This document shows positions 13,503 through 48,160 of a stretch of DNA of 48,160 nt, piece by piece; the first letter of the stretch is position 1; each line of letters starts with the position of its first letter. A model generated the notes under the pieces. That model searched no databases and had not been told where the DNA came from. It worked only from the letters and a program-made list of their open reading frames with translations. The stretch comes from a virus: the UHGV virus genome UHGV-1333633; one strand, given 5' to 3'. Both the position numbers and the translations under genes were made by a program.

Positions 13503-13519
13503 TGCGCCGGTACTTTCTC
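13491..13519 (+). terminator. hairpin ccggcgca-gtga-tgcgccgg plus tactttctc
   Basis: 8-bp stem enclosing the stop codon of the 13221 ORF. Confidence 0.4.
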
Positions 13520-14102
13520 ACCTCAACAACGGTAAAACTAACTTTTCCACTTCTTTCACATAATATTCGTAGTCCAGACTGCCCCAGTCGAAATCCTTAG
13601 CGTCCGCACACTCTGTCACCTTCCATCCGACATACATCCCAGTTTCACGTACTGCAGCGTGTTTACTGCGACTCTTTGCGTGGATACGCTCATCCCACGG
13701 TGTACCAATGCTGTCGAGGTCTCCCGGTTGACCAGTAATCTCGCGCATTACAGCATTGTACACGTCGTCTTTGATGCCGTTCTTACGCTTCCATGTACCC
13801 GGTGCACCAGTTGGTGGCAACAGTTTGACCAGTGACCCACCATTGCGCGAGATAAACACACGCGTGGTGTTCTGCATCTCTCGTTCAGCGCCCCACTCGG
13901 GCCAACGCATTACCAGACGTGCGGAACGAGGCACTTTTGCTCGCAGCATAAAGTCAAACGGGTCACGGTGCTGCGTGATGAACGTGCGGATGTCCTCACC
14001 GTGTACGAGGGCGGCTTCGGCAGCGCGAGCAACAATCATCGCCGATGGGTCTTGGTGCCACTGGTATTTGTACTCGTAACACCCTTTTCTTTTAATTTTC
14101 AC
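13518..14102 (-). CDS. hypothetical protein carrying GTPWDERIH motif
   Basis: 194 aa. The motif DSIGTPWDERIHAKS is shared with the 18686..19542 protein. Confidence 0.5.
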   Translation of the reverse strand: MKIKRKGCYEYKYQWHQDPSAMIVARAAEAALVHGEDIRTFITQHRDPFDFMLRAKVPRSARLVMRWPEWGAEREMQNTTRVFISRNGGSLVKLLPPTGAPGTWKRKNGIKDDVYNAVMREITGQPGDLDSIGTPWDERIHAKSRSKHAAVRETGMYVGWKVTECADAKDFDWGSLDYEYYVKEVEKLVLPLLR

Positions 14103-14928
14103 GGGTTGCCTCCAGCATTTCTAAAATTCGATTGTCCCATTTCAACCATTCGGTACAACCATCAAAACCAGATAATCCAGCATTAACGAAAGAAGAATGA
14201 TATTTTCTCTCCAAGTTCCTAGCGTCGTCGACCATCATCATTCTCACGAGTTTGAATCCGAACGGGGTTGCCCTTTTCAACTGCGAGAAGCGCCTGGTGG
14301 GCCTATTGGTTATTCCCACCTTTACGAATTTCGAGTCATCACTACGGAGGAAATAGATATATCCGGGCAAGGATGGATTGAAACCGCCGTATTCGCAACA
14401 ATATGGACACCCCGTACCCTTATTGCATACGTTATCGGAGGTGGCATCCCATTCGTGACCATTACCACATCGGAATCGAGATAACTTTCGACTGCTACCA
14501 CGATAAATCAGACAACTTAGTCCTCTCGCCGCTATCCTTTCATTTATATCTTCCACCGACAATCTCACTCTCTTCGAGCAGTGAGGGCAACCTGATGAAC
14601 GCATCACACTATCGGCGGTCGTTTCCCATTCGTGACCGTTGACACAGCGGAATCGCGATTTACCCATGACACTACCCGAATACCTAATGCACAATATACT
14701 CCTAGTCGACAACCTTTTATTTATTTCTTCTAACTTAAGCTTCGCCCTACCGGCACAATGAGGGCATCCGTTACCAGACAGTACCGCATCTGCGCGGACA
14801 GACCACGAATGCCCGTGAGAGCATTTAAAATCGGATTTCCTCATTGTCGAACCGGCATAGGATATACAAATCAACCCACGTTCATGGATTCTCTCGTTGA
14901 TCGAATCGATGGTGTGTCTCATTTTCAT
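14092..14928 (-). CDS. free-standing homing-endonuclease-like protein: 3 tandem Zn-ribbon repeats + C-terminal GIY-YIG/T5orf172 domain
   Basis: Three ~50-aa repeats with CxxGHxW...GCPxC. The C-terminus PGYIYFL...KVGIT...ERKYH...GCTEWL fits T5orf172/GIY-YIG. The start ATG overlaps the polymerase stop (ATGA). Confidence 0.6.
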   Translation of the reverse strand: MKMRHTIDSINERIHERGLICISYAGSTMRKSDFKCSHGHSWSVRADAVLSGNGCPHCAGRAKLKLEEINKRLSTRSILCIRYSGSVMGKSRFRCVNGHEWETTADSVMRSSGCPHCSKRVRLSVEDINERIAARGLSCLIYRGSSRKLSRFRCGNGHEWDATSDNVCNKGTGCPYCCEYGGFNPSLPGYIYFLRSDDSKFVKVGITNRPTRRFSQLKRATPFGFKLVRMMMVDDARNLERKYHSSFVNAGLSGFDGCTEWLKWDNRILEMLEATREN

Positions 14929-16448
14929 TCTATTACCATTATATAATTGTTCACATCGCGCTGATAAAGAGACTTCACAATGTCGGTCTCCAGATTCAGC
15001 ATTGTCGTTTTTTCCCACTCTGCACAAATCGATTCGACTAAAGTTTCATATTTATTTTCATAAAAAATGACGATTCCGTCGGTATTAGTTTGGGGTACTA
15101 CTAACCCTGGTACGCGAGTCGTGAGTCGGTCTACCAACATCGCCAGACAAAGTTGCCCCGTGATGGTGATACTCAGGAGGCACTTGTGGTCGCAGAATGG
15201 GCTAAACTTGCTCCCCATGTTCCCAAAGGTAGAATTTAACGCAAGTTTCAATGTCGCGTCGACAGTTTTATCTCCCGCTCGTTTGGCATCGCGACGACGA
15301 ATGAATAGTTGTTCATATACGTCACAAAAAGTTTCACTAAGGTGTTCGGGGTAATAACGATTCTTAATTGAGATGGATGGATACATACTTGTACAGTCTT
15401 TGTTTTGCAAATTGTGTGTTTGGGTAGAATGTACAACGTAGTTCGGAATCCCACTGTGGATACCACCCAAACCAAAAGTATATTCGACGCCGTCAATAGT
15501 GGCGACCATATCATTGAAGACACCCTTCGTGGTCAGTAATTCATCCTGCTGTTTCTTCGTGAGTACAACCCCGCGAATGCGTTCCAGAATTTGATTGAAC
15601 TCCGGTCGTTCGAATTTGATATACGGAGGTATACAATCCGCAAGTGCCACACGCTCACGGATGGTTGACCGGGAGCAATCCACCCCGGCCTTTTCCAGTT
15701 CGTGAACGAATATATCTTTGCCGATTTTAGTGTCGGCGTGATTCATAAAGTTACGACCGTATTGCTTTGTTAGTTCCTCACGGAAATGAATTTTATCAAG
15801 TGAACGCACGAAGAATTTGAGTGTTTCGCGGACGTCGTGCTTGTTGTATGCGATAAGGACATCTTTCTGCGCATCGTTCAACACCATTTCGACCGGGAAT
15901 GGCAGGTCTTTTACGTTGGGGGACCGCATACCTACTTCTAACGCCTTCAGGCTGGTGCGCCGGGCTTTATTATCAAAGTGATAAATTTTGTACAGGTCAA
16001 TCTGCTCGAAAATCTGGTCGCGGTCCCATATAATTTCTGGCCACTGACCTTCGGGCTTAATCTGTGATTGCGCCTTCGCATAAATCTGTTCCAGTGTACA
16101 ACCCGGCGTATTGACCACGTAGTGTAGCACCGGATAGTCGAATGCCAGGTTATTAAATCCAATCCCACGGGCCTTACTGCGTCCCAGGTTGAACACGAAT
16201 TCGATTAATTGCGACTGCTCGTTTTTACGGTCACTGATTTCGAAGATTAACTCCATGCCCGTCGCAGCATGAATAAATGAGGCGGTAAATATGTTCTTGT
16301 ACGTCTCTAAATCATATCCCCAGTCTCGCGGGTCCAGTGGTGCAATGCTGGAGAACGCCGAATCAGCCCCACAGTGGGGGCAATTGTGGAGGTCAGCGGG
16401 ATAAGCTTTACCGCAAGTTGCATCCTCGCATTTTGATAAATAGTGCAT
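14925..16448 (-). CDS. family B DNA polymerase (miniature, 507 aa) with 3'-5' exonuclease
   Basis: Exo I WGYDLET, Exo II FNNLAFDYPVL, Exo III YNKHDVRET. Pol motif A DCTSMYPSI, motif B KLALNSTFGNMG, motif C TNTDGI. N-terminal C4 zinc ribbon CEDATCG...CPHCG. Confidence 0.75.
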   Translation of the reverse strand: MHYLSKCEDATCGKAYPADLHNCPHCGADSAFSSIAPLDPRDWGYDLETYKNIFTASFIHAATGMELIFEISDRKNEQSQLIEFVFNLGRSKARGIGFNNLAFDYPVLHYVVNTPGCTLEQIYAKAQSQIKPEGQWPEIIWDRDQIFEQIDLYKIYHFDNKARRTSLKALEVGMRSPNVKDLPFPVEMVLNDAQKDVLIAYNKHDVRETLKFFVRSLDKIHFREELTKQYGRNFMNHADTKIGKDIFVHELEKAGVDCSRSTIRERVALADCIPPYIKFERPEFNQILERIRGVVLTKKQQDELLTTKGVFNDMVATIDGVEYTFGLGGIHSGIPNYVVHSTQTHNLQNKDCTSMYPSISIKNRYYPEHLSETFCDVYEQLFIRRRDAKRAGDKTVDATLKLALNSTFGNMGSKFSPFCDHKCLLSITITGQLCLAMLVDRLTTRVPGLVVPQTNTDGIVIFYENKYETLVESICAEWEKTTMLNLETDIVKSLYQRDVNNYIMVIE

Positions 16449-22811: not shown

Positions 22812-22853
22812 CCTGTGCCATACTGCAACAAATTACCTAATGGAACCGAAATT

Positions 22854-23132
22854 ATGAGCAAAGAACACATTCTGGAAGTAGCTTACACGATGGCACAGCG
22901 CGACGGCTTTGGTACTCTTACCCGCGATGGCGTGGCAGCCGAGGCTGGTGTGGCAATGGGCACCATCAACCATCACTGGGTCAGGATGGACGCACTTCGT
23001 GAGGCAGTGATGCAACGAGCAGTGGAAGAAGAAAACCTCGAACTGATTGGACAGGGTATTGCACTGGGTGACAACATCGCTAAGTCTGCACCACTGGAGC
23101 TACGTGCTCGCGCGTTGACCACCTTACTTTAA
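22854..23132 (+). CDS. TetR-family-like HTH transcriptional regulator (short, ~93 aa)
   Basis: ILEVAYTMAQRDGFGTLTRDGVAAEAGVAMGTINHHW fits the TetR_N HTH signature. Start taken at MSKEH, downstream of the promoter -10. Confidence 0.45.
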   Translation: MSKEHILEVAYTMAQRDGFGTLTRDGVAAEAGVAMGTINHHWVRMDALREAVMQRAVEEENLELIGQGIALGDNIAKSAPLELRARALTTLL

Positions 23133-23154: not shown

Positions 23155-25512
23155 ATGACACATACGAATCCCCCTGTGCAGGGGGCTGATTCCCTGCACT
23201 TTATCGTCTGCAAAACAGTACCTTCACAGAAGAAACCAGGGCGCACGGAGAAGATGCCGTGTAATGCTGCTGGTGAAGTGGTCAGTCTGCACGTTGCGGA
23301 CCGCATGTCTCATGCTCAGGCGGTCGCGGCGGCTTCTGCACTGGGTGAGTCATATCGTCCCGCGGTCATTCTTACGGGTGATGGTCGTTTCTGCGTGGAT
23401 ATCGACGGTGCACTACAGGATGATAACACCTGGTCACCGCTCGCGCTGGAATTATGCACAACTTTTGCCGGTTGTTACGTGGAAGTGAGCAACAGCGGTA
23501 AAGGCTTGCACATTTTTGGTTACAGTCCGTCCATCCCTGAGCACAGCTGTAAAAATGTTCCACTGCACATCGAACTGTACACGTCCGACCGTTTCATCTG
23601 TCTGGGAAGTGGTGCACGGGGTGACATGATGTTTAACGCATCCGCACCGCTCAACGCCACGGTTGCCCGGTATTTCCCGCAGACCGAGCAAGTTGCAGCG
23701 GTGGAGTGGTCAACAACTCACGCCGAAGGTTCGTGTCCGATTGAGGACGACGCGAAACTCATCGAAAAAGCCTGTTCGAGTAAAGGTGGTGTCGCGGCTG
23801 TTTTCGGTGGTAAAGCAACATTTAAAGACCTGTGGACGCGTAACGTCGAGGTACTGAGTGATGCGTATCCGGATGAGGACCGCGAGTATGACGGGTCGAG
23901 CGCCGATGCCGCACTGGCCCAACATTTATCGTTCTGGACCGGTGGTAACTGTGAACGTATCGAACGCCTGATGCGTCTGTCTGCGCTGGCGCGTCCTAAA
24001 TGGGACAGTCACAAGTCGTACATGCGACGCACCATTCTGGGTGCTTGCGCACGTCAGACAACCTACTACAGCGTCGGCGCACCGATTGAACTGGTGACTC
24101 CCGCGCAGGTTGTCGAGACGGGTGCACCGGTTATCCGAAGCGGGTATCAATTCATTGGAGGCTCACAGCTTGTTGACCATTTCAAAGGCTGCGTGTATGT
24201 GGCAGACAGTCATCGCGTACTGACCCCAAATGGTCAAATGCTGAAATCGGAACAATTCGACGTTATGTATGGTGGTTACGCCTTCGCGTTAGACGACAGT
24301 AACGAAAAAACAACAAAGTCTGCCTTTGAAGCCTTCACACGGAGTCAGTGCATTATGTTCCCGAAGGTTGACCGCTCGACATTTCGTCCGGACTTGTCAC
24401 AGGGTGCCATCATTGAAGAAGATGGTTTGCGTCATGTCAACGTATACGTGCCGGTCACGGTGGCGAGCGTCCCGGGCGATGTGACACCTTTCCTCACTCA
24501 TCTGGCTAAACTTTTACCCGTCGAGCGCGACCGTGAGATTCTGTTGTCATACATGGCAGCGTGTGTGCAGTACAAGGGGACTAAATTTAAATGGGCACCA
24601 TTGCTCCAGGGTGTTGAGGGTAACGGTAAAACACTGTTCACACTGTGCGTAATGGAAGCGGTAGGTTCACGTTACAGCCACATGCCGCCAGCGCAGGAGA
24701 TTGGCGAGAAGTTCAACGCGTGGCTGTTCGATAAAATATTTATCGGCGTGGAAGATATTTACGTTCCGGAGCAGAAACTCGAACTGATTGAAACGCTCAA
24801 GCCGATGATTACCGGTGAGTACCTCGCTAAACGTGCGATGCAGCAGGACCAGGTAATGCACCGCCTGTGTGCTAACTTCATGTTTAACAGTAACCACAAG
24901 AACGCCGTGCGCAAGACGGCTAATGACCGCCGGTTCGCTATTTTCTACACCGCGCAGCAGGAGCATATCGACATCGTGCGCGACGGTATGGGTGGAGACT
25001 ACTTCCCCAACCTGTATGACTGGCTCAAACGTGGTGGTGGATTTGCAGCCGTGACGCATTATCTGGAGAACTACGCCATTCCCGCACAGTTTAACCCGGC
25101 GACACATTGTCAGCGTGCGCCAGAGACCAGCAGTACTCACGAGGCTGTGACAGCATCACTTGGCAGCGTCGAACAGGAAATCATGGAAGCAATTGACGAG
25201 GGTCGCCAGGGCTTTGCGGGTGGTTGGGTGAGCAGTAAGGCACTGGACAACCTGTTACGCCAGATGCGTGCCGACCGCGCTGTACCGGTGGGTAAACGTC
25301 GTGACATGATGCGTCAACTAGGTTACGACTGGCACCCGGCGCTCAAGGATGGACGCGTGAATAACGTGATAATGATTGACGGTGGTAAGCCACGGTTGTA
25401 CATCAAGATTGGACACATTCACGCTAACCTCACAAATGCAGCAGACGTGGCGCGCCATTACGCGGCGGCACAGGGTGATACGAGTACTATTGCCTTTGCG
25501 GAAACTAAATAA
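23155..25512 (+). CDS. primase-polymerase + SF3 helicase replication protein (P4 alpha / D5-like)
   Basis: Prim-pol motif VEVSNSGKGLHIFG. Walker A GVEGNGKT and Walker B FIGVEDI in the C-terminal half. 785 aa. Confidence 0.7.
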   Translation: MTHTNPPVQGADSLHFIVCKTVPSQKKPGRTEKMPCNAAGEVVSLHVADRMSHAQAVAAASALGESYRPAVILTGDGRFCVDIDGALQDDNTWSPLALELCTTFAGCYVEVSNSGKGLHIFGYSPSIPEHSCKNVPLHIELYTSDRFICLGSGARGDMMFNASAPLNATVARYFPQTEQVAAVEWSTTHAEGSCPIEDDAKLIEKACSSKGGVAAVFGGKATFKDLWTRNVEVLSDAYPDEDREYDGSSADAALAQHLSFWTGGNCERIERLMRLSALARPKWDSHKSYMRRTILGACARQTTYYSVGAPIELVTPAQVVETGAPVIRSGYQFIGGSQLVDHFKGCVYVADSHRVLTPNGQMLKSEQFDVMYGGYAFALDDSNEKTTKSAFEAFTRSQCIMFPKVDRSTFRPDLSQGAIIEEDGLRHVNVYVPVTVASVPGDVTPFLTHLAKLLPVERDREILLSYMAACVQYKGTKFKWAPLLQGVEGNGKTLFTLCVMEAVGSRYSHMPPAQEIGEKFNAWLFDKIFIGVEDIYVPEQKLELIETLKPMITGEYLAKRAMQQDQVMHRLCANFMFNSNHKNAVRKTANDRRFAIFYTAQQEHIDIVRDGMGGDYFPNLYDWLKRGGGFAAVTHYLENYAIPAQFNPATHCQRAPETSSTHEAVTASLGSVEQEIMEAIDEGRQGFAGGWVSSKALDNLLRQMRADRAVPVGKRRDMMRQLGYDWHPALKDGRVNNVIMIDGGKPRLYIKIGHIHANLTNAADVARHYAAAQGDTSTIAFAETK

Positions 25513-28316: not shown

Positions 28317-28351
28317 CACACGGGTTATTTGCCGCGTCAATACCTCATTTT

Positions 28352-28624
28352 ACCCCGAAAATGGTAAATCATCAGGGTGGAGAATTTACTTTCACAATCA
28401 GCAGCTTACGCGCATAACCGAAAACCCCGTACATTTTCGCTATATTCTCTCTTCTCTCTTGTTACCGTTTGTATGTTGTCTATATACATTCTTTTACTAT
28501 CTTACTACTATACTAATTATTATTTTATAAGGGTATAAGGGTAATAAGTAGTATAGTACTGAAAACTAAAGAGTTTTTCGTACCCCGATGAAGTACCCCG
28601 AACGAGTTTCAACGGGGTATGTGG
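28352..28624. repeat. 273-bp regulatory module, copy A (near-identical to 40515..40787), upstream of the terminase operon
   Basis: A few mismatches over 273 bp. Contains the AT-rich core tataagggtataagggtaataag and the hairpin taccccg-N12-cggggta (28594..28619). Confidence 0.85.
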
Positions 28625-39175: not shown

Positions 39176-39805
39176 ATGTCGGTAACAACTTACGAAGTTC
39201 TTTCTGCTAATACAGTTAGCGAACTCGTTGCGCTCGTCAATGCTGCAACAGGTAAAACGCCACTTGGTGAGATATTCATCCGAGGTGGTGCGCCTCGACA
39301 GGTGGTTGTCACAGGTGAGCCGGTAAGCGGGTACATCTCCGACGATTATCAGGCTGTTGTTGGTGTAGACCCCCAGGGTCTGGCTGACGCTGTAATGGCT
39401 GTCATGACTGATGAGATTCAGCCATTAGGTGCGCCAATCATCCGTAACAATACAATGATTCAAATGATGGGAACCGTGACCCCTTCAAGTAGCGGCTCTG
39501 TGGCGTGGGGTGATATTACCGGGAAACCTACTGTTATCGCCGCGGGTGCGGACGCCACCGCGGCACGTACCGCAATTGGTGCGGGCACTTCGAGTCTGGT
39601 CATTGGTACAACCGCATCAACGGCGATGGCTGGTGATAAGTTTACGCAAGGCTCAGCGGTCCACAATGTCGGATCGCAGACGGTATCGGGAGAGGATGCG
39701 ACAGCCGTGGCTGCCTCGGCAACTACGGCTGTTAACACGGTGGCGACAAAATTAAATGACCTGCTTACCCAACTGCGTGCCTCTGGCATTATTGCATCGA
39801 ACTAA
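39176..39805 (+). CDS. fiber-repeat-containing structural protein
   Basis: GDITGKPT...TAARTAIGAG resembles phage tail-fibre repeat motifs. Confidence 0.4.
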   Translation: MSVTTYEVLSANTVSELVALVNAATGKTPLGEIFIRGGAPRQVVVTGEPVSGYISDDYQAVVGVDPQGLADAVMAVMTDEIQPLGAPIIRNNTMIQMMGTVTPSSSGSVAWGDITGKPTVIAAGADATAARTAIGAGTSSLVIGTTASTAMAGDKFTQGSAVHNVGSQTVSGEDATAVAASATTAVNTVATKLNDLLTQLRASGIIASN

Positions 39806-39835: not shown

Positions 39836-39964
39836 ACCAATCCTCCCGGCGTAGTGACGACCGTAATACTTCATGATGACCTTGTCAGCACATAAATAAC
39901 CTTCATCCTCAACCACGATACCTCTGATAATGAAGAAGCTACGATAGTGTTTTGTTCTCATCAT
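39830..39964 (-). CDS. small ORF (44 aa), ATGA-coupled to the AP2 gene
   Basis: Below the track cutoff. MMRTKHYRSFFIIRG... Confidence 0.3.
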   Translation of the reverse strand: MMRTKHYRSFFIIRGIVVEDEGYLCADKVIMKYYGRHYAGRIGE

Positions 39965-40257
39965 GACCTCGAATATGGTTCGCGTTTTGGACCTTTCGGT
40001 ATCTCCTGCGGAGTGAATCCGCGCTCACGCCAGAAGTACCACAGTTTTCTTGCCAACAACGCGCGATGTGGAGTATTGAAACAACCGACCGTCAGCGTGA
40101 CATTCCTGTAGAAGACCACCGCCTCCCACTTGCCATACCTGTGATGAATCCCGGGAACTCGCGCGAGATGTAACTCACGCGACGCAATCCTGTCACACTT
40201 CTTACGCCATTGTTTCGTGGGGACATGACGCAGGATATCTTCAACAAGGCTTCCCAT
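39961..40257 (-). CDS. AP2-domain DNA-binding protein (HNH-endonuclease-associated type), stand-alone
   Basis: HHRYGKWEAVVFYRNVTLTVGCFNTPHRALLARKLW fits the AP2 beta-sheet/helix pattern. Confidence 0.5.
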   Translation of the reverse strand: MGSLVEDILRHVPTKQWRKKCDRIASRELHLARVPGIHHRYGKWEAVVFYRNVTLTVGCFNTPHRALLARKLWYFWRERGFTPQEIPKGPKREPYSRS

Positions 40258-40305
40258 AATTTATAAACCCTCTCTCTCTAATTCGTGTACTGAGTGTATC
40301 AATGG

Positions 40306-40321
40306 TTGACGAATCCGTCAA
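40306..40321 (-). promoter_or_regulatory. palindrome TTGACGAATCCGTCAA. Minus promoter TTGACG-17-TACACT for the AP2 gene.
   Basis: Read on the reverse complement. RBS gagagagaggg. Confidence 0.5.
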
Positions 40322-40343
40322 TACCACGCGATGACGTCGAGGC

Positions 40344-40500
40344 TAATTTCATTCCGATCAAAAAGTGAACAACTTTGTAGTACAATATAATTACAGTGTA
40401 CTACCGTATAATTTCATTCCGATCAAAAAGTGAACAACTTTGTAGTACAATATAATTACAGTGTACTACCGTATAATTTCATTCCGATCAAAAAGTGAAC
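40344..40500. repeat. 65-bp direct tandem repeat, 2.4 copies. Each unit carries the 8-bp inverted repeat GTAGTACA-N12-TGTACTAC and a cgTATAAT element.
   Basis: Period 65 (40344, 40409, 40474). Palindromes at 40377..40404 and 40442..40469. Confidence 0.85.
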
Positions 40501-40514
40501 GATTACCCGAAAAC

Positions 40515-40787
40515 ACCCCGAAAATGGTAAATCATCAGGGTGGAGAATTTACTTTCACAATCAGCAGCTTACGCGCATAACCGAAAACCCCGTACATTTT
40601 CGCTATATTCTCTCTTCTCTCTTGTTACCGTTTGTATGTTGTCTATATACATTCTTTTACTATCTTACTACTATACTAATTATTATTTTATAAGGGTATA
40701 AGGGTAATAAGTAGTATAGTACTGAAAGTTAAAGAGTTTTTGATACCCCGATGAAGTACCCCGAACGAGTTTTAACGGGGTGTGTGG
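40515..40787. repeat. 273-bp regulatory module, copy B, upstream of the neck/tail operon
   Basis: Near-identical to 28352..28624. Confidence 0.85.
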
Positions 40788-40836
40788 ATACTGGCGCAAC
40801 GTTGTGTGATAATGTCTTGACAAACGAGGGCACACT

Positions 40837-41340
40837 ATGTCAGTCAACATTAAAGCGCTACAGCAAGCCAAACAGGCAATACGTTCGAAACTGGAGCAAT
40901 ACGCTAAAGCCGGTCAGAAGACTGTGACCGTCGGTATCCATTCGGACGCAGGTGAACATCCTGACTCCGGTATGACAAATGCCCAGCTTGGCGCATTGCT
41001 GAATTACGGTAACCCGAATAACAAGCTATACGGTAATCCCGCACCTATTCCACCGCGCCCCTGGCTGATACCCGGTGTGCAAAGCGGTAAACAGGACATC
41101 GTGGATACCATTGCTCATGGTATAGCTAATGATTTACCGCTTGACCGGGTGCTGGAACAAGTGGGCGCGTTTGCGGCTGGTGCGGTTCAACAATACATGA
41201 CTGACCTCGACACTCCTCCGAACAGTCCGTACACTATCGCTCGGAAGGGTTCCAGTTCGCCGCTTATTGATACTGGCGCTCTACGGGCGAGCGTAACGTA
41301 CAAGGTCACCAACGAAAAACCTGATGAGGGTATCTTATGA
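40837..41340 (+). CDS. neck/virion morphogenesis protein
   Basis: 167 aa. First gene after repeat copy B. Confidence 0.4.
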   Translation: MSVNIKALQQAKQAIRSKLEQYAKAGQKTVTVGIHSDAGEHPDSGMTNAQLGALLNYGNPNNKLYGNPAPIPPRPWLIPGVQSGKQDIVDTIAHGIANDLPLDRVLEQVGAFAAGAVQQYMTDLDTPPNSPYTIARKGSSSPLIDTGALRASVTYKVTNEKPDEGIL

Positions 41341-43864: not shown

Positions 43865-43890
43865 ATGAAAGGGGCCATCAGGCCCCTTTT
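43845..43890. repeat. direct repeat L (tube gene 3' end + terminator) flanking the homing-endonuclease gene. Partner at 45393..45435.
   Basis: caaagggtccagcaagctaaatgaaaggggccatcaggcccctttt versus caagggtccggcaagctaaacaaaaggggccatcgggcccctt. Confidence 0.8.
43866..43890 (+). terminator. terminator aggggcc-atca-ggcccct + TTTT after the tube gene. The stop codon of the minus-strand HEG lies in its loop.
   Basis: Read directly. Confidence 0.6.
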
Positions 43891-45326
43891 CTCCACATGT
43901 ATTTTTTAGTACCCGAATTTTCCGTAATCAAACACCCCGCCTCATCCATCATTTGACGTTGAGTCTTTTTCTTGGAAAATACCGACGGGTCAACCCCTAA
44001 CTTACTTAGCGTTTTTGGGATGTTAATCTTCCACCATTGTTGCCGACTCATGAAACCCACTTTCCGGTGCCATATTCTGAATGATGTGACCGAATCATCA
44101 ACCAGTTCGAATCCTGAGTTTTCATAACTTGACCCGTCGAAATAGTCACAATCTACGAACGATTGGCACCATTGCATATTTAGAGCCGCGGCCGCGTGTT
44201 TGAACAGCTTGGACTGACCACCTCTGACCATACAACTCGTGGCATAACGTACCATATCGAATCCACCCTCAGCAATTTGGTTAAATGTCATAACTGCGAC
44301 GATTTGACCGGATTTATGGGTGAGTGCGAAATTATGTGAGGCCCGAGCATAGCCCTGAACGTGATGTTCAATCAGGAACTTCCGGGCATCTTTGCCGGGG
44401 ATATTCACAATCTTACAGTCGCGAGCGTTGACTCTCACATCTTCGGAGTGCCCCGTGGCGTTTTTTATGATTCGCGTAATGATTGGTTTTTTATCTTTCC
44501 AGTCTTGTTCTGATATTGATATCAATCTATACCCAACACTGTTAGTTCTGATACGTTTGTTTTTGTGATATCCCCTCGGTCGTTTCTGCAGGCTGTGCCA
44601 GTATGTGCCATTGAATTCTATTGCCACTTTTGAAGCGTGGTCCACTATGTCGAGTTCTTGAGGTGCGATTAGTGAGCGATTCGAAATGTCAACATCACCG
44701 ATTAGCGACTGTATTTCCACTTCGAAACTTGATGGTCCCACGTTCGCGCATTTGGGGCAACCCACCCCGTAAGCATGCTGAAACGCAATCGGTGTGAAGT
44801 CTCCGTGTTTTTCGCATGTAACTACAATTTTGTCGCCAGATTTGGTGTATGATGTTTTGTCATAGGTATATGGACTACCACTGTCTTTCATTTTTTGGAC
44901 GAATGATTCCGTATCGTATTTCCCACCTTGTTTGCACTTGGGACAACCTTGCCCCGTGGTGCAGTGTGCAGATGGAGTCTGGTAGAAATCTCCATGAGTG
45001 GGACAGGTGATTCTCATCTTTGTACGGGTGTCAACATATGTTTCGGGGTGGTACTCATATTTATTTCCGTGTTTCTCTTTGGCGCGGTCGAGCATTTCAG
45101 AAACAGACTTCCGTTTGTTCGTATTTTTAATTTTTTTTGCACATTCTGGGCAGTTGCTGCCATTAGTGTGGTCTGCTGCAATCTGTAAGAAATCCCCGTG
45201 AATGCGGCATTTTATCCGAACTGTGTTCGCCTTACCCGTGTAAACTACCCCCGTGTAATCGTACCTGTCACCGTGTACAGATTTGGCCTTATTGACGTAT
45301 TCTTCGGTTGTCAACTTTTTGGACAT
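43878..45326 (-). CDS. free-standing homing-endonuclease-like protein: 3 Zn-ribbon repeats + Vsr-like/DUF559 PD-(D/E)xK nuclease domain + C-terminal domain
   Basis: Repeats with HGDF...GCPxC. ELDIVDHASKVAIEFNGTYWH matches the Vsr/DUF559 core. Start MSKK after RBS gagggaggag. Confidence 0.6.
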   Translation of the reverse strand: MSKKLTTEEYVNKAKSVHGDRYDYTGVVYTGKANTVRIKCRIHGDFLQIAADHTNGSNCPECAKKIKNTNKRKSVSEMLDRAKEKHGNKYEYHPETYVDTRTKMRITCPTHGDFYQTPSAHCTTGQGCPKCKQGGKYDTESFVQKMKDSGSPYTYDKTSYTKSGDKIVVTCEKHGDFTPIAFQHAYGVGCPKCANVGPSSFEVEIQSLIGDVDISNRSLIAPQELDIVDHASKVAIEFNGTYWHSLQKRPRGYHKNKRIRTNSVGYRLISISEQDWKDKKPIITRIIKNATGHSEDVRVNARDCKIVNIPGKDARKFLIEHHVQGYARASHNFALTHKSGQIVAVMTFNQIAEGGFDMVRYATSCMVRGGQSKLFKHAAAALNMQWCQSFVDCDYFDGSSYENSGFELVDDSVTSFRIWHRKVGFMSRQQWWKINIPKTLSKLGVDPSVFSKKKTQRQMMDEAGCLITENSGTKKYMWRKGA

Positions 45327-45392
45327 GTTCTCCTCCCTCTCATGATGACCAACGTGTTTCGATTGAATAATACACGTGCTACATAGCCAAAA

Positions 45393-45435
45393 CAAGGGTC
45401 CGGCAAGCTAAACAAAAGGGGCCATCGGGCCCCTT
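45393..45435. repeat. direct repeat R (copy of tube gene 3' end + terminator)
   Basis: See 43845..43890. Confidence 0.8.
45411..45435 (-). terminator. minus-strand terminator for Rha copy 1 (hairpin + ttttgttt)
   Basis: Read on the reverse complement. Confidence 0.55.
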
Positions 45436-45448
45436 GGTTATTTTTAAC

Positions 45449-46165
45449 TCAAATCAAACCTTCTTCAGATAATTTTCTGACAATCCACATTTCACCTTCG
45501 GCATAGAACATAGGTTGTGAGAACCCATTCTCTGTCTCCCGCATTATCCCGTACCCCTTATCGATGAACCATTGCTGAAATACACGTCCACGCTTCACGG
45601 AGCGATTGTAGACGTCCATTGAGGTTAACTGCTTGTTTAACCATATCGCTGATTGTCCGAACTTCTGGGCGATCTGAGTGGCGTTATAGAGACCATTGCG
45701 TTCTACAATCCGGTCGTAGACGTCTGCTTTTGGTGTCATCTCCTCATTCTCTAGTGCAAGACGTTCTTTCTCTTTCTCGCTTTCCAGCAGCGCTTCAAGT
45801 GCTTGAATATAGTTTTGTGGTAGTGCGGGTGTATTCACCCGTGATTCCAGCTCTTGCCAACGCTTGATTATCTTCATTCGTAATTGAGCGTTATACCCTG
45901 ACACCAGGCAGATGGTGTTATCTTTATCCAGCCGGTACTCCCATGCGTTTGGGTTGGTGGTATCATACTGAATGCACGTAACCCCATGATTCGTAACGTA
46001 ACTCAAATTTGAGTTACGAACATAATCTTCATCGTGACCACCATGTAGAGCGCAGAGCATTGAGCGAATGTCTCTGCAAACATTGTCGTGACGCTTCTCA
46101 ACTAGCGTCGCAATCTCGCGGCTAGACATGGTTAGTTCCGATTTTGTGTTTACTAAATCGTTCAT
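45449..46165 (-). CDS. Rha-family regulatory protein with KilAC (antirepressor C-terminal) domain, paralog 1 (intact)
   Basis: N-terminus TMSSREIATLVEKRHDNV (Phage_pRha). C-terminus YNATQIAQKFGQSAIWLNKQL... (KilAC). Confidence 0.75.
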   Translation of the reverse strand: MNDLVNTKSELTMSSREIATLVEKRHDNVCRDIRSMLCALHGGHDEDYVRNSNLSYVTNHGVTCIQYDTTNPNAWEYRLDKDNTICLVSGYNAQLRMKIIKRWQELESRVNTPALPQNYIQALEALLESEKEKERLALENEEMTPKADVYDRIVERNGLYNATQIAQKFGQSAIWLNKQLTSMDVYNRSVKRGRVFQQWFIDKGYGIMRETENGFSQPMFYAEGEMWIVRKLSEEGLI

Positions 46166-46172
46166 CTCTGTT

Positions 46173-46182
46173 CCCCCCCCCC
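46173..46182. repeat. C10 homopolymer (G10 on the mRNA) between RBS and the remaining leader of Rha paralog 1
   Basis: Read directly. Absent from the leaders of the other copies. Confidence 0.9.
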
Positions 46183-46285
46183 TCTTGTTCGTGTGAGTGT
46201 AGTTTCGATAAAAATCACGACCCGTTCAAATCGATTTATTCATGGTCACGATTAACGATGTGATTGATCACAATTGACCCCTTAG

Positions 46286-46429
46286 TTATTTTCTTTTACT
46301 CCGAATGTGAAAGTCTGCTTTATCCATCATGTCTTTGCGCCAGCAAACACCGGTGCCCATATACGCCGGGTCGTCACTTTCCGCATAACCAAATTCGTTT
46401 TCATGGTATGTGCAAATCGTGTCGGTCTG
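46286..46429 (-). pseudogene. 3' fragment of the small exported-protein gene (paralog of 46709..46963)
   Basis: Translates to QTDTICTYHENEFGYAESDDPAYMGTGVCWRKDMMDKADFHIRSKRK*, about 90% identical to the C-terminus of the 46709 ORF. No N-terminus. Confidence 0.5.
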
Positions 46430-46590
46430 CCTCCGTTCGACGGCATGACCTTTTCCTCAAAAGTGAGGGAAAGGTCATGCGCCATTTTCGATATGTCGCG
46501 TCGTACATTATCGTGTTCCTTCCCTGTCAATTCCGCAATCTCACGGCTGGACATCGTTTGTACATCGCCGACAGTCATTAAGTCATTCAT
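46327..46590 (-). CDS. truncated Rha N-terminal-domain ORF (recombination remnant)
   Basis: MNDLMTVGDVQTMSSREIAELTGKEHDNVRRDISKM, then unrelated sequence. Contains the inverted repeat 46444..46479. Confidence 0.4.
   Translation of the reverse strand: MNDLMTVGDVQTMSSREIAELTGKEHDNVRRDISKMAHDLSLTFEEKVMPSNGGRPTRFAHTMKTNLVMRKVTTRRIWAPVFAGAKT
46444..46479. repeat. 16-bp-arm inverted repeat catgaccttttcctca-aaag-tgagggaaaggtcatg at the junction inside the truncated Rha ORF
   Basis: Read directly. Confidence 0.7.
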
Positions 46591-46708
46591 ATTTCGTATC
46601 TCCTCTCTTGTTCGTGTGAGTGTAGTTTCGATGAAAATCACGACCCGTTCAAATCGATTTGTTTATGATCACGATTAACGATGTAATTGATGACAATTGA
46701 CCTCTTAG

Positions 46709-46963
46709 TTATTTTCTTTTACTCCGAATGTGGAAGTCCGCTTTGTCCATCATTTCTTTACGCCAGCAAATCCCGGTACCCATATACGCCGGGTCGTCAC
46801 TTTCCGCATAACCGTATTCATTTTCATGATACGTACAAATCGTATCGGTTTGCTCATCGTAAATCTGGAATTGCTCGCTCTGAGCACTGTGGGCACCACT
46901 GCAGTAAATTGCCGCAGCCACGATAACAACCAACTGAATTTTAAATTTGTTTAACATTTTCAC
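46709..46963 (-). CDS. small exported protein (signal peptide, 4 Cys)
   Basis: MKMLNKFKIQLVVIVAAAIYCSGAHSA signal. Its N-terminal leader is paralogous to the 47750..47932 protein (MLNK...IVAAV). Confidence 0.5.
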   Translation of the reverse strand: MKMLNKFKIQLVVIVAAAIYCSGAHSAQSEQFQIYDEQTDTICTYHENEYGYAESDDPAYMGTGICWRKEMMDKADFHIRSKRK

Positions 46964-46984
46964 ATCTCCCCTGTTATTTTTAAC

Positions 46985-47674
46985 TCAAATCAAACCTTCT
47001 TCAGATAATTTTCTGACAATCCACATTTCACCTTCGGCATAGAACATAGGTTGTGAGAACCCATTCTCTGTCTCCCGCATTATCCCGTACCCCTTATCGA
47101 TGAACCACTGTTGAAATACACGTCCGCGCTTCACGGAGCGATTGTAGACGTCCATCGAGGCTAGTTGTTTGTTTAGCCATATCGCTGATTGTCCGAACTT
47201 CTGTGCGATTTGAGTGGCGTTATAGAGACCATTGCGTTCTACGATTCGGTCGTAGACGTCTGCTTTTGGTGCTGCTATCGATAGTTTCTCCTGCGCCAAA
47301 AGCTTCTGTTCGTACTCGGTAGCCCATGCTCTCGCGGCTTCTGCTGGATTTGTGAAGTCTGGTAGTGTCGGTTTGTTGGCGTTCTCAAGTTCTTGCCAAC
47401 GGTTAATCAACTTCTGACGCAAGGGAATGTTATAGCCAGTCATTAACAGTAGTGTTTGATTCTTGGTTAGCAGATACTCGGATGTATACCCTCTATTATC
47501 TGTAAGTGACTGAAATTCCTCATGGTCCAAATTTGGACCATCTTTTAACTGCTCGATAATTGTGCGAATATCGCGAATAATGTGTTTATGTTCCTTCCCA
47601 GTCAATTCCGCAATCTCACGGCTGGACATCGTTTGTACATCGCCGACAGTCATTAAGCCATTCATATCTCGCAT
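46985..47674 (-). CDS. Rha-family / KilAC antirepressor-like protein, paralog 2 (intact)
   Basis: MSSREIAELTGKEHKHIIRDIR N-terminus. C-terminal 100 aa identical to paralog 1. Confidence 0.75.
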   Translation of the reverse strand: MRDMNGLMTVGDVQTMSSREIAELTGKEHKHIIRDIRTIIEQLKDGPNLDHEEFQSLTDNRGYTSEYLLTKNQTLLLMTGYNIPLRQKLINRWQELENANKPTLPDFTNPAEAARAWATEYEQKLLAQEKLSIAAPKADVYDRIVERNGLYNATQIAQKFGQSAIWLNKQLASMDVYNRSVKRGRVFQQWFIDKGYGIMRETENGFSQPMFYAEGEMWIVRKLSEEGLI

Positions 47675-47749
47675 CTCCTCTCTCTCGTTTGCGTGAGTGT
47701 GGTTTGTTTATGGTCACGATGATGACTGACTAGATTTTGAACTCACAAA

Positions 47750-47932
47750 TCATTTTGTCAGCATCCTTTTGAGTTTCATTGCGCACAGGTAGAAGAAGTA
47801 GAGACCTGGTAGAGCCAGAATCATCGGCACAATCTCCCCATTTTTCTCGTGTTCCAGACCCACTGCAATCATGGATGCGGCCACAGCTGCGACAATTAAG
47901 AAACATACCACTGTCATGATTTTGTTTAACAT
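47750..47932 (-). CDS. small membrane protein (2 TM), paralogous leader to 46709 protein
   Basis: MLNKIMTVVCFLIVAAVAASMIAVG...PMILALPGLYFFYLCAM. Confidence 0.45.
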   Translation of the reverse strand: MLNKIMTVVCFLIVAAVAASMIAVGLEHEKNGEIVPMILALPGLYFFYLCAMKLKRMLTK

Positions 47933-47977
47933 TTTCGTGTCCTCTCTGTTGTTTTGTTGATGTAACTGTAACTCGCA

Positions 47978-47993
47978 TTGACGACGCCGTCAA
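47978..47993 (-). promoter_or_regulatory. palindrome TTGACGACGCCGTCAA. Minus promoter TTGACG-17-TACAGT for the 47932 gene.
   Basis: Read on the reverse complement. RBS agagagg. Confidence 0.5.
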
Positions 47994-47996
47994 CAC

Positions 47997-48160
47997 TTAA
48001 ATCAAACCTTCTTCGGATAATTTTCTGACAATCCACATTTCACCTTCGGCATAGAACATAGGTTGTGAGAACCCATTCTCTGTCTCCCGCATTATCCCGT
48101 ACCCCTTATCGATGAACCACTGTTGAAATACACGTCCGCGCTTCACGGAGCGATTGTAGA
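47997..48160 (-). CDS. 3' end of Rha/KilAC paralog 3. The gene continues across the window junction into 1..421.
   Basis: Identical to 46985..47148. Stop at 47997..47999. The window end joins the window start in perfect register with paralog 2. Confidence 0.55.
   Translation of the reverse strand, partial: YNRSVKRGRVFQQWFIDKGYGIMRETENGFSQPMFYAEGEMWIVRKLSEEGLI

Follow-up and report, generated by a model that had tools for sequence, protein, structure and literature searches.

Phage genomes contain sites for transcription factors of their hosts, such as LexA boxes, CRP sites and the PhoB and NtcA sites of cyanophages. These sites are usually single and located at defined promoters, and most of them bind global regulators. 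Direct repeats are found in the iteron origins of plasmids and phages, such as P1 oriR and lambda ori, where the repeat unit is about 20 bp long.

The promoter-operator of the enterobacterial dgoRKADT operon has been analyzed in detail. DgoR binds as dimers to two inverted repeats (IRs), which overlap the dgo promoter (PMC11705089). IR1, CTAAATTGTAGTACAACAATAT, is a perfect repeat and IR2 has one mismatch, and only these two inverted repeats are described in the DgoR papers (PMC11705089, PMC12288454). A CRP class II half-site, TGTGA, is located immediately upstream (PMC6003448), and DgoR binds the host dgo promoter with a KD of about 0.5 µM (PMC12288454). The use of D-galactonate is linked to gut colonisation by enterobacteria (PMC12288454, PMC3573128). 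The operon is also a target of a phage: the Pid protein of P22 derepresses the host dgo operon (PMC3573128, PMC8835761) and this effect is abolished by extra, plasmid-borne DgoR (PMC3573128). Here, we describe a tandem array from a Klebsiella phage whose sites match the DgoR operator in sequence. A literature search returned no report on this repeat or on a link between DgoR sites and Klebsiella phages.

Results

The phage and the locus

The window, that is the whole stretch of 48,160 nucleotides of UHGV-1333633, is a genome that is complete and circularly permuted. It belongs to a Klebsiella myovirus from the genus Jedunavirus (JD001, KpV79, BUCT791 type). The circular permutation is apparent from three tandem paralogous cassettes on the minus strand (45437-48160, running into 1-688), the third of which spans the ends of the window; two of their genes (45449-46165 and 46985-47674) code for Rha plus KilAC/ANT regulatory proteins. 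Region 40200-40900 has matches in 71 phage records, of which 65 are from Klebsiella phages, with BUCT791 at the top (99.5%). The array lies in a non-coding gap of 579 bp (40258-40836), which is long compared to the gaps annotated in relatives. Its site is a divergent control region with a small leftward gene on one side and the regulatory module of the neck/tail operon on the other. The features are as follows:

39961-40257, minus strand: 98-aa gene, phrog_9632 (a PHROG without assigned function), with a weakly AP2-like predicted fold; neighbour of the array
40293-40321, minus strand: sigma-70-like promoter TTGACG-17-TACACT, serving the leftward 98-aa gene and overlapping the family palindrome at 40306-40321
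40326-40514: inserted segment, consisting of an 18-bp leader ACGCGATGACGTCGAGGC, the array and GATTACCCGAAAAC, as defined against array-less relatives and the module A junction
40344-40500, plus strand: tandem array; unit 1 at 40344-40408, unit 2 at 40409-40473, partial unit (first 27 bp) at 40474-40500
40364-40368, 40429-40433 and 40494-40498, plus strand: AGTGA, in the register of the host CRP half-site (GTGAWC, 4 nt, IR1)
40375-40385: IR1 of unit 1, TTGTAGTACAA, equal to IR1 of the DgoR operator in the host dgo promoter
40396-40406: IR2' of unit 1, GTGTACTACCG, the weaker site, its centre 21 bp from that of IR1
40440-40450: IR1 of unit 2, TTGTAGTACAA, 44 bp from the preceding IR2' centre
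40461-40471: IR2' of unit 2, GTGTACTACCG
40386-40391, 40407-40412, 40451-40456 and 40472-40477, plus strand: TATAAT, perfect -10-like hexamers, each starting 6 bp past an IR centre
40515-40787, plus strand: module B, a 273-bp regulatory module that precedes the neck/tail operon and shares 98% identity with module A (28352-28624)
40785-40813, plus strand: extended -10-like site preceding the neck gene at 40837

A promoter is annotated in the KpV79 deposit at the position equivalent to 40293-40321 (minus strand). The family palindrome TTGACGAATCCGTCAA at 40306-40321, pointed out in the first-pass annotation, is real and overlaps the -35 box of this promoter. It is one of about ten sites of the type TTGACG-N4-CGTCAA in the genome (17538, 19588, 22078, 22796, 25543, 32766, 34004, 34719, 40306 and 47978; 0.58 expected), which are located at the starts of genes, where they also serve as -35 boxes. 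One copy is found 19 bp upstream of the start of a TetR-like gene (22815-23132), and the family is likely the operator of this TetR-like phage regulator.

Module B and its non-coding duplicate, module A, lie upstream of the neck/tail and the terminase/portal operon, respectively. Each copy has a polypyrimidine run and a long AT-rich stretch with two copies of TATAAGGG, and ends near an extended -10-like site. The 273-bp module is probably a late regulatory region whose copies are held uniform by gene conversion.

As for the replication genes, the replication protein (23155-25512) has an NrS-1-type primase-polymerase helix-bundle domain plus DUF5906. Two alleles of this primase-helicase, about 80% identical, are shuffled among otherwise similar phages. 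The DNA polymerase gene (13518-16448, minus strand) is split by an inserted endonuclease gene (14092-15027) whose product combines a treble-clef zinc finger with a T5orf172/GIY-YIG-like part; the polymerase gene is uninterrupted in relatives such as KpV52 and HHU1. Further genes that resemble homing endonuclease genes are found at 43878-45395.

Anatomy of the array

A repeat with a period of 65 and 2.4 copies had been noticed at 40344-40500 from the sequence, and Tandem Repeats Finder returned exactly this (100% matches, score 314). A repeat search of the window gave two copies of 65 nt and three of 27 nt, with 100% identity throughout. The motif GTAGTACA-N12-TGTACTAC occurs exactly twice in the window (40377-40404 and 40442-40469); no further site with up to three mismatches was found in the whole window (0.17 expected by chance). 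The first-pass annotation described it as a 28-bp palindromic site. Since the 12-bp spacer itself is not palindromic, the site is an inverted repeat of 8 bp with its arms 12 bp apart, and not a palindrome of 28 bp. Each arm is a small palindrome of its own, TTGTAGTACAA and, less perfectly, GTGTACTACCG, and each of these half-sites is an inverted repeat of the GntR/FadR type, the kind bound by dimers.

The cgTATAAT box described for each copy was found as CCG-TATAAT at the unit junctions (40404-40412 and 40469-40477). In addition, each palindrome contains a second perfect TATAAT (40386-40391 and 40451-40456) that had gone unmentioned. A promoter scan gave none inside the array, where the TATAAT boxes have no usable -35 or extended -10. 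No -35 and -10 hexamers at a distance of 16-18 bp were found within the array, and the only promoter-like sites between 39800 and 40900 were those at 40321-40293 (minus strand) and 40785-40813 (plus strand). In the register of the host promoter, the -10 of the phage unit is only TACCGT, and the TATAAT boxes are off-register. No plus-strand terminator was found between the array and the neck gene (40837), and no known RNA families or tRNAs were found at the array. Repeated ORFs of 22 aa within the array have no ribosome-binding site and were treated as spurious.

Match to the host dgo operator

Searching viral contigs with a 16-base palindrome pattern gave the arrays of Jedunavirus and the dgoR-yidX intergenic region of E. 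coli. The same pattern matched at least 120 loci in genomes, and 74 of the matches listed are dgo promoters of Enterobacterales. That of K. pneumoniae ATCC 13883 is one of these 74; there, the downstream ORFs are dgoR and dgoK (kinase). DgoR of K. pneumoniae is 94% identical to DgoR of E. coli, with 71 of 75 residues identical in the DNA-binding region.

In this comparison of phage and host operators, which was made after the fact, phage IR1, TTGTAGTACAA, is identical to IR1 of K. pneumoniae and E. coli in 11 of 11 positions. It also agrees with the published IR1 (PMC11705089) and has the form of the TTGTA(G/C)TACAA inverted repeats (FadR-subfamily pattern t.GTa.tAC.a). The core of IR2', TGTACTAC, is the same as in host IR2 (8/8), with flanks G..CG instead of T..AA/AT; one natural variant of IR2' is TTGTACTACCG. 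Upstream of IR1, GTGA-C in the phage matches five of the six positions conserved in the hosts. The two layouts read:

Host consensus: TTTTTGTGATC-nnnA-TTGTAGTACAA-N10-TTGTACTACA
Phage unit: AAAAAGTGAAC-AACT-TTGTAGTACAA-N10-GTGTACTACC

The centres of the phage sites (40380, 40401, 40445 and 40466) are spaced by 21, 44 and 21 bp, those of the host by 21 and 43 bp; thus, the 65-bp period nearly reproduces the 21+43 layout of the host. The centre spacing of 21 bp was seen in all 26 tabulated host promoters, a spacing that was fixed by the search pattern itself. Most of the Enterobacterales dgo promoters examined have a third conserved core, GTA(G/C)TAC or GTACTGC, about 43 bp after IR2, which may be a further DgoR site.

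The match was quantified with a PWM built from the host sites among the matches listed, in which the core columns are invariant by construction, the core pattern having been fixed at collection. Both phage IR1 copies scored 18.8 bits; host IR1 sites among the matches listed scored from 13.4 bits upwards, with a median of 21.7. When the 48 kb were scanned, the two IR1 copies tied for the top two places and the next best site had 8.0 bits. The maximum over 300 shuffles averaged 10.5 and peaked at 19.0. IR2' scored 4.8 bits, against a minimum of 10.9 for host IR2 among the matches listed. Outside the operator cores, the identity of the unit to host promoters was 34%, compared to 25% by chance and 58% between hosts, and a recent capture of a host promoter was rejected on these values. 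The array is taken to be a mimic, and not an orthologue, of the host dgo promoter, because it stands in a phage-genome context and is so little alike outside the cores.

Insertion and copy number in relatives

In part of the Jedunavirus group, the array is present as an accessory insertion about 190 bp long. The junction without array reads CGTCAATACC-TCATTTT-ACCCGAAAATGG in SCNJ1-Y, P5026, 1611E-K2-1 and the outgroup Pectobacterium phage PEAT2, and the module A junction of the window (28336-28360) is the same as in these array-less relatives, CGTCAATACC-TCATTTT-ACCC(C)GAAAATGG. At the array, about 189 bp (40326-40514) stand in place of TCATTTT. Neither a target-site duplication nor terminal inverted repeats were found flanking the insert; its right edge has an 11-bp direct duplication, TTACCCGAAAA. 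A search of plasmids for a source gave no match, and a 23-mer from the left part of the unit was found only in five Jedunavirus-like metagenome contigs.

The unit is present in 26 of the 71 related records, all 26 from Klebsiella phages, with 1.4 to at least 5.4 units per array. JD001, KpTDp1, RCIP0063 and, judged by match length, Kpn112 have one palindrome (1.4 units). Two are present in UHGV-1333633, KpV79, FZ14, MEW1, pKp383 and others, three in BUCT791 and one viral contig, four in one viral contig, and five in HHU1 (including one irregular partial unit) and one metagenome contig. P5026, 1611E-K2-1, SCNJ1-Y, KpV52 and PEAT2 have none. Units within one genome are essentially identical; between genomes there are few substitutions, mostly outside both sites. 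IR1 is invariant in 46 of 46 units, with too few changes overall to test selection. All arrays go back to a single insertion, and the phages that carry them share about 90% identity or more; the conservation of the sites therefore says little on selection. The backgrounds in which the array is found are mosaic and include either primase allele, either type of terminase and either type of left gene.

Some records have to be read with care. RCIP0033 (OR532827.1) has a run of N within the array. In IMGVR_UViG_3300029548_000032 (11.5 kb) and OGDS01002631.1, the array and module are joined to the terminase side, as if there were a second array upstream of the terminase module. This was rejected: because of the 273-bp repeat of modules A and B, these contigs are assembly-graph cycles and not real mini-genomes. 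The tandem repeat breaks assemblies, and it also explains the circular "mini-contigs" in metagenomes.

No phage gene goes along with the array

The first-pass annotation had named the product of the adjacent gene, taken to be a stand-alone AP2 DNA-binding protein, as a candidate binder. The 98-aa ORF matched nothing in Pfam or NCBIfam, even at E<=10. Its predicted model has a three-strand-plus-helix core with pLDDT values of 70-86, and the best Foldseek matches in the PDB were all plant AP2/ERF domains, at a non-significant E of ~0.3. The AP2 label is plausible but weak. As a binder of the array, the protein is contradicted by the decoupling of gene and array in both directions, and by sites that match the operator of a host repressor. 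The gene is present in the array-less PEAT2, SCNJ1-Y, KLPPOU148 and BUCT_49532, and no close homologue was found in the array carriers HHU1, KpTDp1, RCIP0063, FZ14 and RCIP0091; at least in HHU1, KpTDp1 and RCIP0063 a different left gene lies beside the array.

Neither phmmer nor blastp detected a GntR homologue among all ORFs of at least 40 aa in the phage. When the gene content of four genomes with the array was screened against that of three without it, only the large terminase (TerL) co-occurred with the array, and in a wider sample this link was broken in both directions. No accessory phage gene co-occurs with the array, whose presence follows neither the primase-helicase allele nor the type of terminase nor the 98-aa gene.

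Discussion

The explanation to which we lean, at somewhat better than even likelihood, is that the array is a tandem 65-bp cassette of variable copy number that mimics the promoter-operator of the host dgoRKADT operon, is bound by DgoR and serves as promoter or as sink. The anatomy of the array, its nature as an insertion, its variation in copy number and its match in sequence to the host operator are established, as is the lack of a linked phage gene; binding of DgoR to the array and any effect on transcription we infer from the sequence. A host factor is the most economical binder, since the phage has no detectable GntR protein, no other such site and no gene linked to the array, and since the array is optional. 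DgoR would be the specific host candidate. Of the two functions that had been proposed for the array, origin of replication and operator array for a dimeric regulator, the former is rejected. The latter fits in its general form, without the phage-encoded binders proposed for it, and survives, with moderate confidence, as a tandem mimic of the operator of a host sugar-acid repressor.

How would such an array work? Dimers of host DgoR, a member of the GntR/FadR family, would occupy two sites per unit and would be released by D-galactonate. Each unit might then be a weak, DgoR-repressed and possibly CRP-assisted rightward promoter into module B and the neck/tail operon, so that a nutrient signal of the host would control additional transcription of the late module. 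The TATAAT boxes and the absence of a plus-strand terminator before 40837 fit such a regulated promoter; the missing -35 and the poor -10 in host register (TACCGT) argue against it.

Alternatively, multiplying phage genomes with two to at least ten sites each would soak up DgoR, which is scarce and autoregulated, and its depletion would derepress the host dgo operon. A low-level autoregulated repressor could be titrated by hundreds of replicating genomes that carry 4-10 sites. That the array is such a DNA decoy, with DgoR operators (four here, at least ten in some relatives) that titrate DgoR and turn the dgo operon on, and with copy number as a dosage dial, is conceivable but doubtful. Unequal recombination or slippage between the 27-bp repeats would alter the copy number and thereby tune either effect. 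Variation in copy number fits a dosage role, but it is equally what a neutral minisatellite would show. Any benefit of the array must be conditional, because many relatives do well without it.

Several other explanations have to be weighed against binding by DgoR. The phage encodes regulators of its own, a TetR_N protein (22815-23132), the Rha plus ANT paralogues and the AP2-like 98-aa protein, and the array lies within a divergent control region; it could therefore be an operator array for a regulator from the core genome, with the DgoR likeness a coincidence. This is improbable: the IR sites are found nowhere else in the genome, the array is missing from close relatives with the same core proteins, and a regulator whose only sites are optional would be unusual. 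Moreover, the TetR-like gene has its own candidate operator, TTGACG-N4-CGTCAA, and AP2 domains usually bind as monomers, which counts, together with the decoupling of gene and array, against the AP2-like protein. Phased repeats with palindromes in a long non-coding region, about 100-200 bp upstream of an AT-rich stretch (~40600-40750, ~73-74% A+T), are also what one expects of an iteron-type replication origin. We consider an origin at the array very unlikely. The cumulative GC skew, a check suggested at the outset, reaches its minimum in the divergent early region (19,491) and not at the array; its maximum at 39,710 is part of a broad plateau that follows the coding strand. Array-less KpV52, 1611E-K2-1, P5026, SCNJ1-Y and PEAT2 share the primase-helicase allele of the window at 95-98%, carriers have either allele, and relatives are viable with one palindrome (JD001, KpTDp1, RCIP0063) or none (P5026, KpV52, PEAT2). 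With only 2.4 units of 65 bp, the array has no adjacent initiator gene, neither a DnaA box nor an IHF consensus is present within the intergenic region, and the AT-rich stretch is part of the duplicated 273-bp module. Small terminases often bind repeated sites, and the first gene-content screen had left only the large terminase; nevertheless, a packaging (pac) site is the least credible of all readings, since ZCEC13, SBP, KLPPOU148 and P5026 share the same TerL at 98-100% but lack the array, KpTDp1, RCIP0091, RCIP0045 and phiYH65 have the array without that TerL, and the terminase genes are 11 kb away.

The array may also have no binder at all. As a functionless minisatellite, it would be a short insert that grew by slippage and spread by hitch-hiking, with the operator likeness as a relic or a product of chance. 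Its 1.4 to at least 5.4 copies, identical within a genome, the one irregular partial unit in HHU1 and the many relatives without array are in line with this, and the low divergence gives no power to detect selection. We nevertheless regard it as unlikely, since the 11/11 operator match, the second core at native spacing and the GTGA register are jointly improbable by chance, and since the presence of the array in mosaic backgrounds suggests upkeep or spread by recombination. Quite unlikely is a set of unregulated tandem promoters fired from the TATAAT boxes, or a small RNA gene with the hairpins acting as RNA. Four perfect TATAAT hexamers, the open path on the plus strand to the neck gene and a region that folds better than shuffles (z = -3.8 and -4.9) speak for it; on the other hand, neither a -35 nor an extended -10 is present, the fold signal merely reflects the palindromes, no Rfam family came near threshold, and the exact operator match would be left unexplained.

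If DgoR binds, a virulent phage would read or rewire a sugar-acid pathway of its host via borrowed operator DNA, and natural alleles with 0, 1, 2, 3, 4 and 5 copies exist for testing dosage. Jedunavirus-type phages are under development for therapy of K. pneumoniae, and a nutrient-dependent control element could therefore affect their performance in vivo.

Among the known systems, the promoter-operator of dgoRKADT in E. coli, Klebsiella and Salmonella comes closest. Like the array, it has IR1, TTGTAGTACAA, with a second GTACTAC core at a distance of 21 bp, a GTGA motif that precedes IR1 by 4 nt (the CRP half-site in the host), an AT-rich, -10-like spacer between the sites and a next site about 43-44 bp further on. 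Unlike it, the array belongs to a virulent phage, is not beside dgo genes, comes in 1.4 to at least 5.4 tandem repeats and has an IR2' with poor flanks, and the remaining sequence cannot be aligned (34% identity). Iteron origins share with the array direct repeats in a non-coding region near AT-rich DNA, but the array has no cognate initiator, a unit of 65 bp, is dispensable and is not linked to replication genes. Sites for host factors in phages resemble the array, as we read it, in that a borrowed host regulator ties phage expression to host physiology; here, however, the sites would be tandem, variable in copy number and for a pathway-specific sugar-acid repressor. P22 would be a parallel at the level of the regulon, since it is also an enterobacterial phage that acts on genes controlled by DgoR. 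There, the agent is a protein, Pid, and the phage is temperate and in the carrier state, whereas here DNA sites would take this part, in a virulent phage in which no pid-like function was identified. If binding by DgoR is true, the array would be a second, mechanistically different convergence of a phage on the dgo regulon after P22, and if it acts as decoy, it would be the counterpart, at the level of DNA, of the Pid protein.
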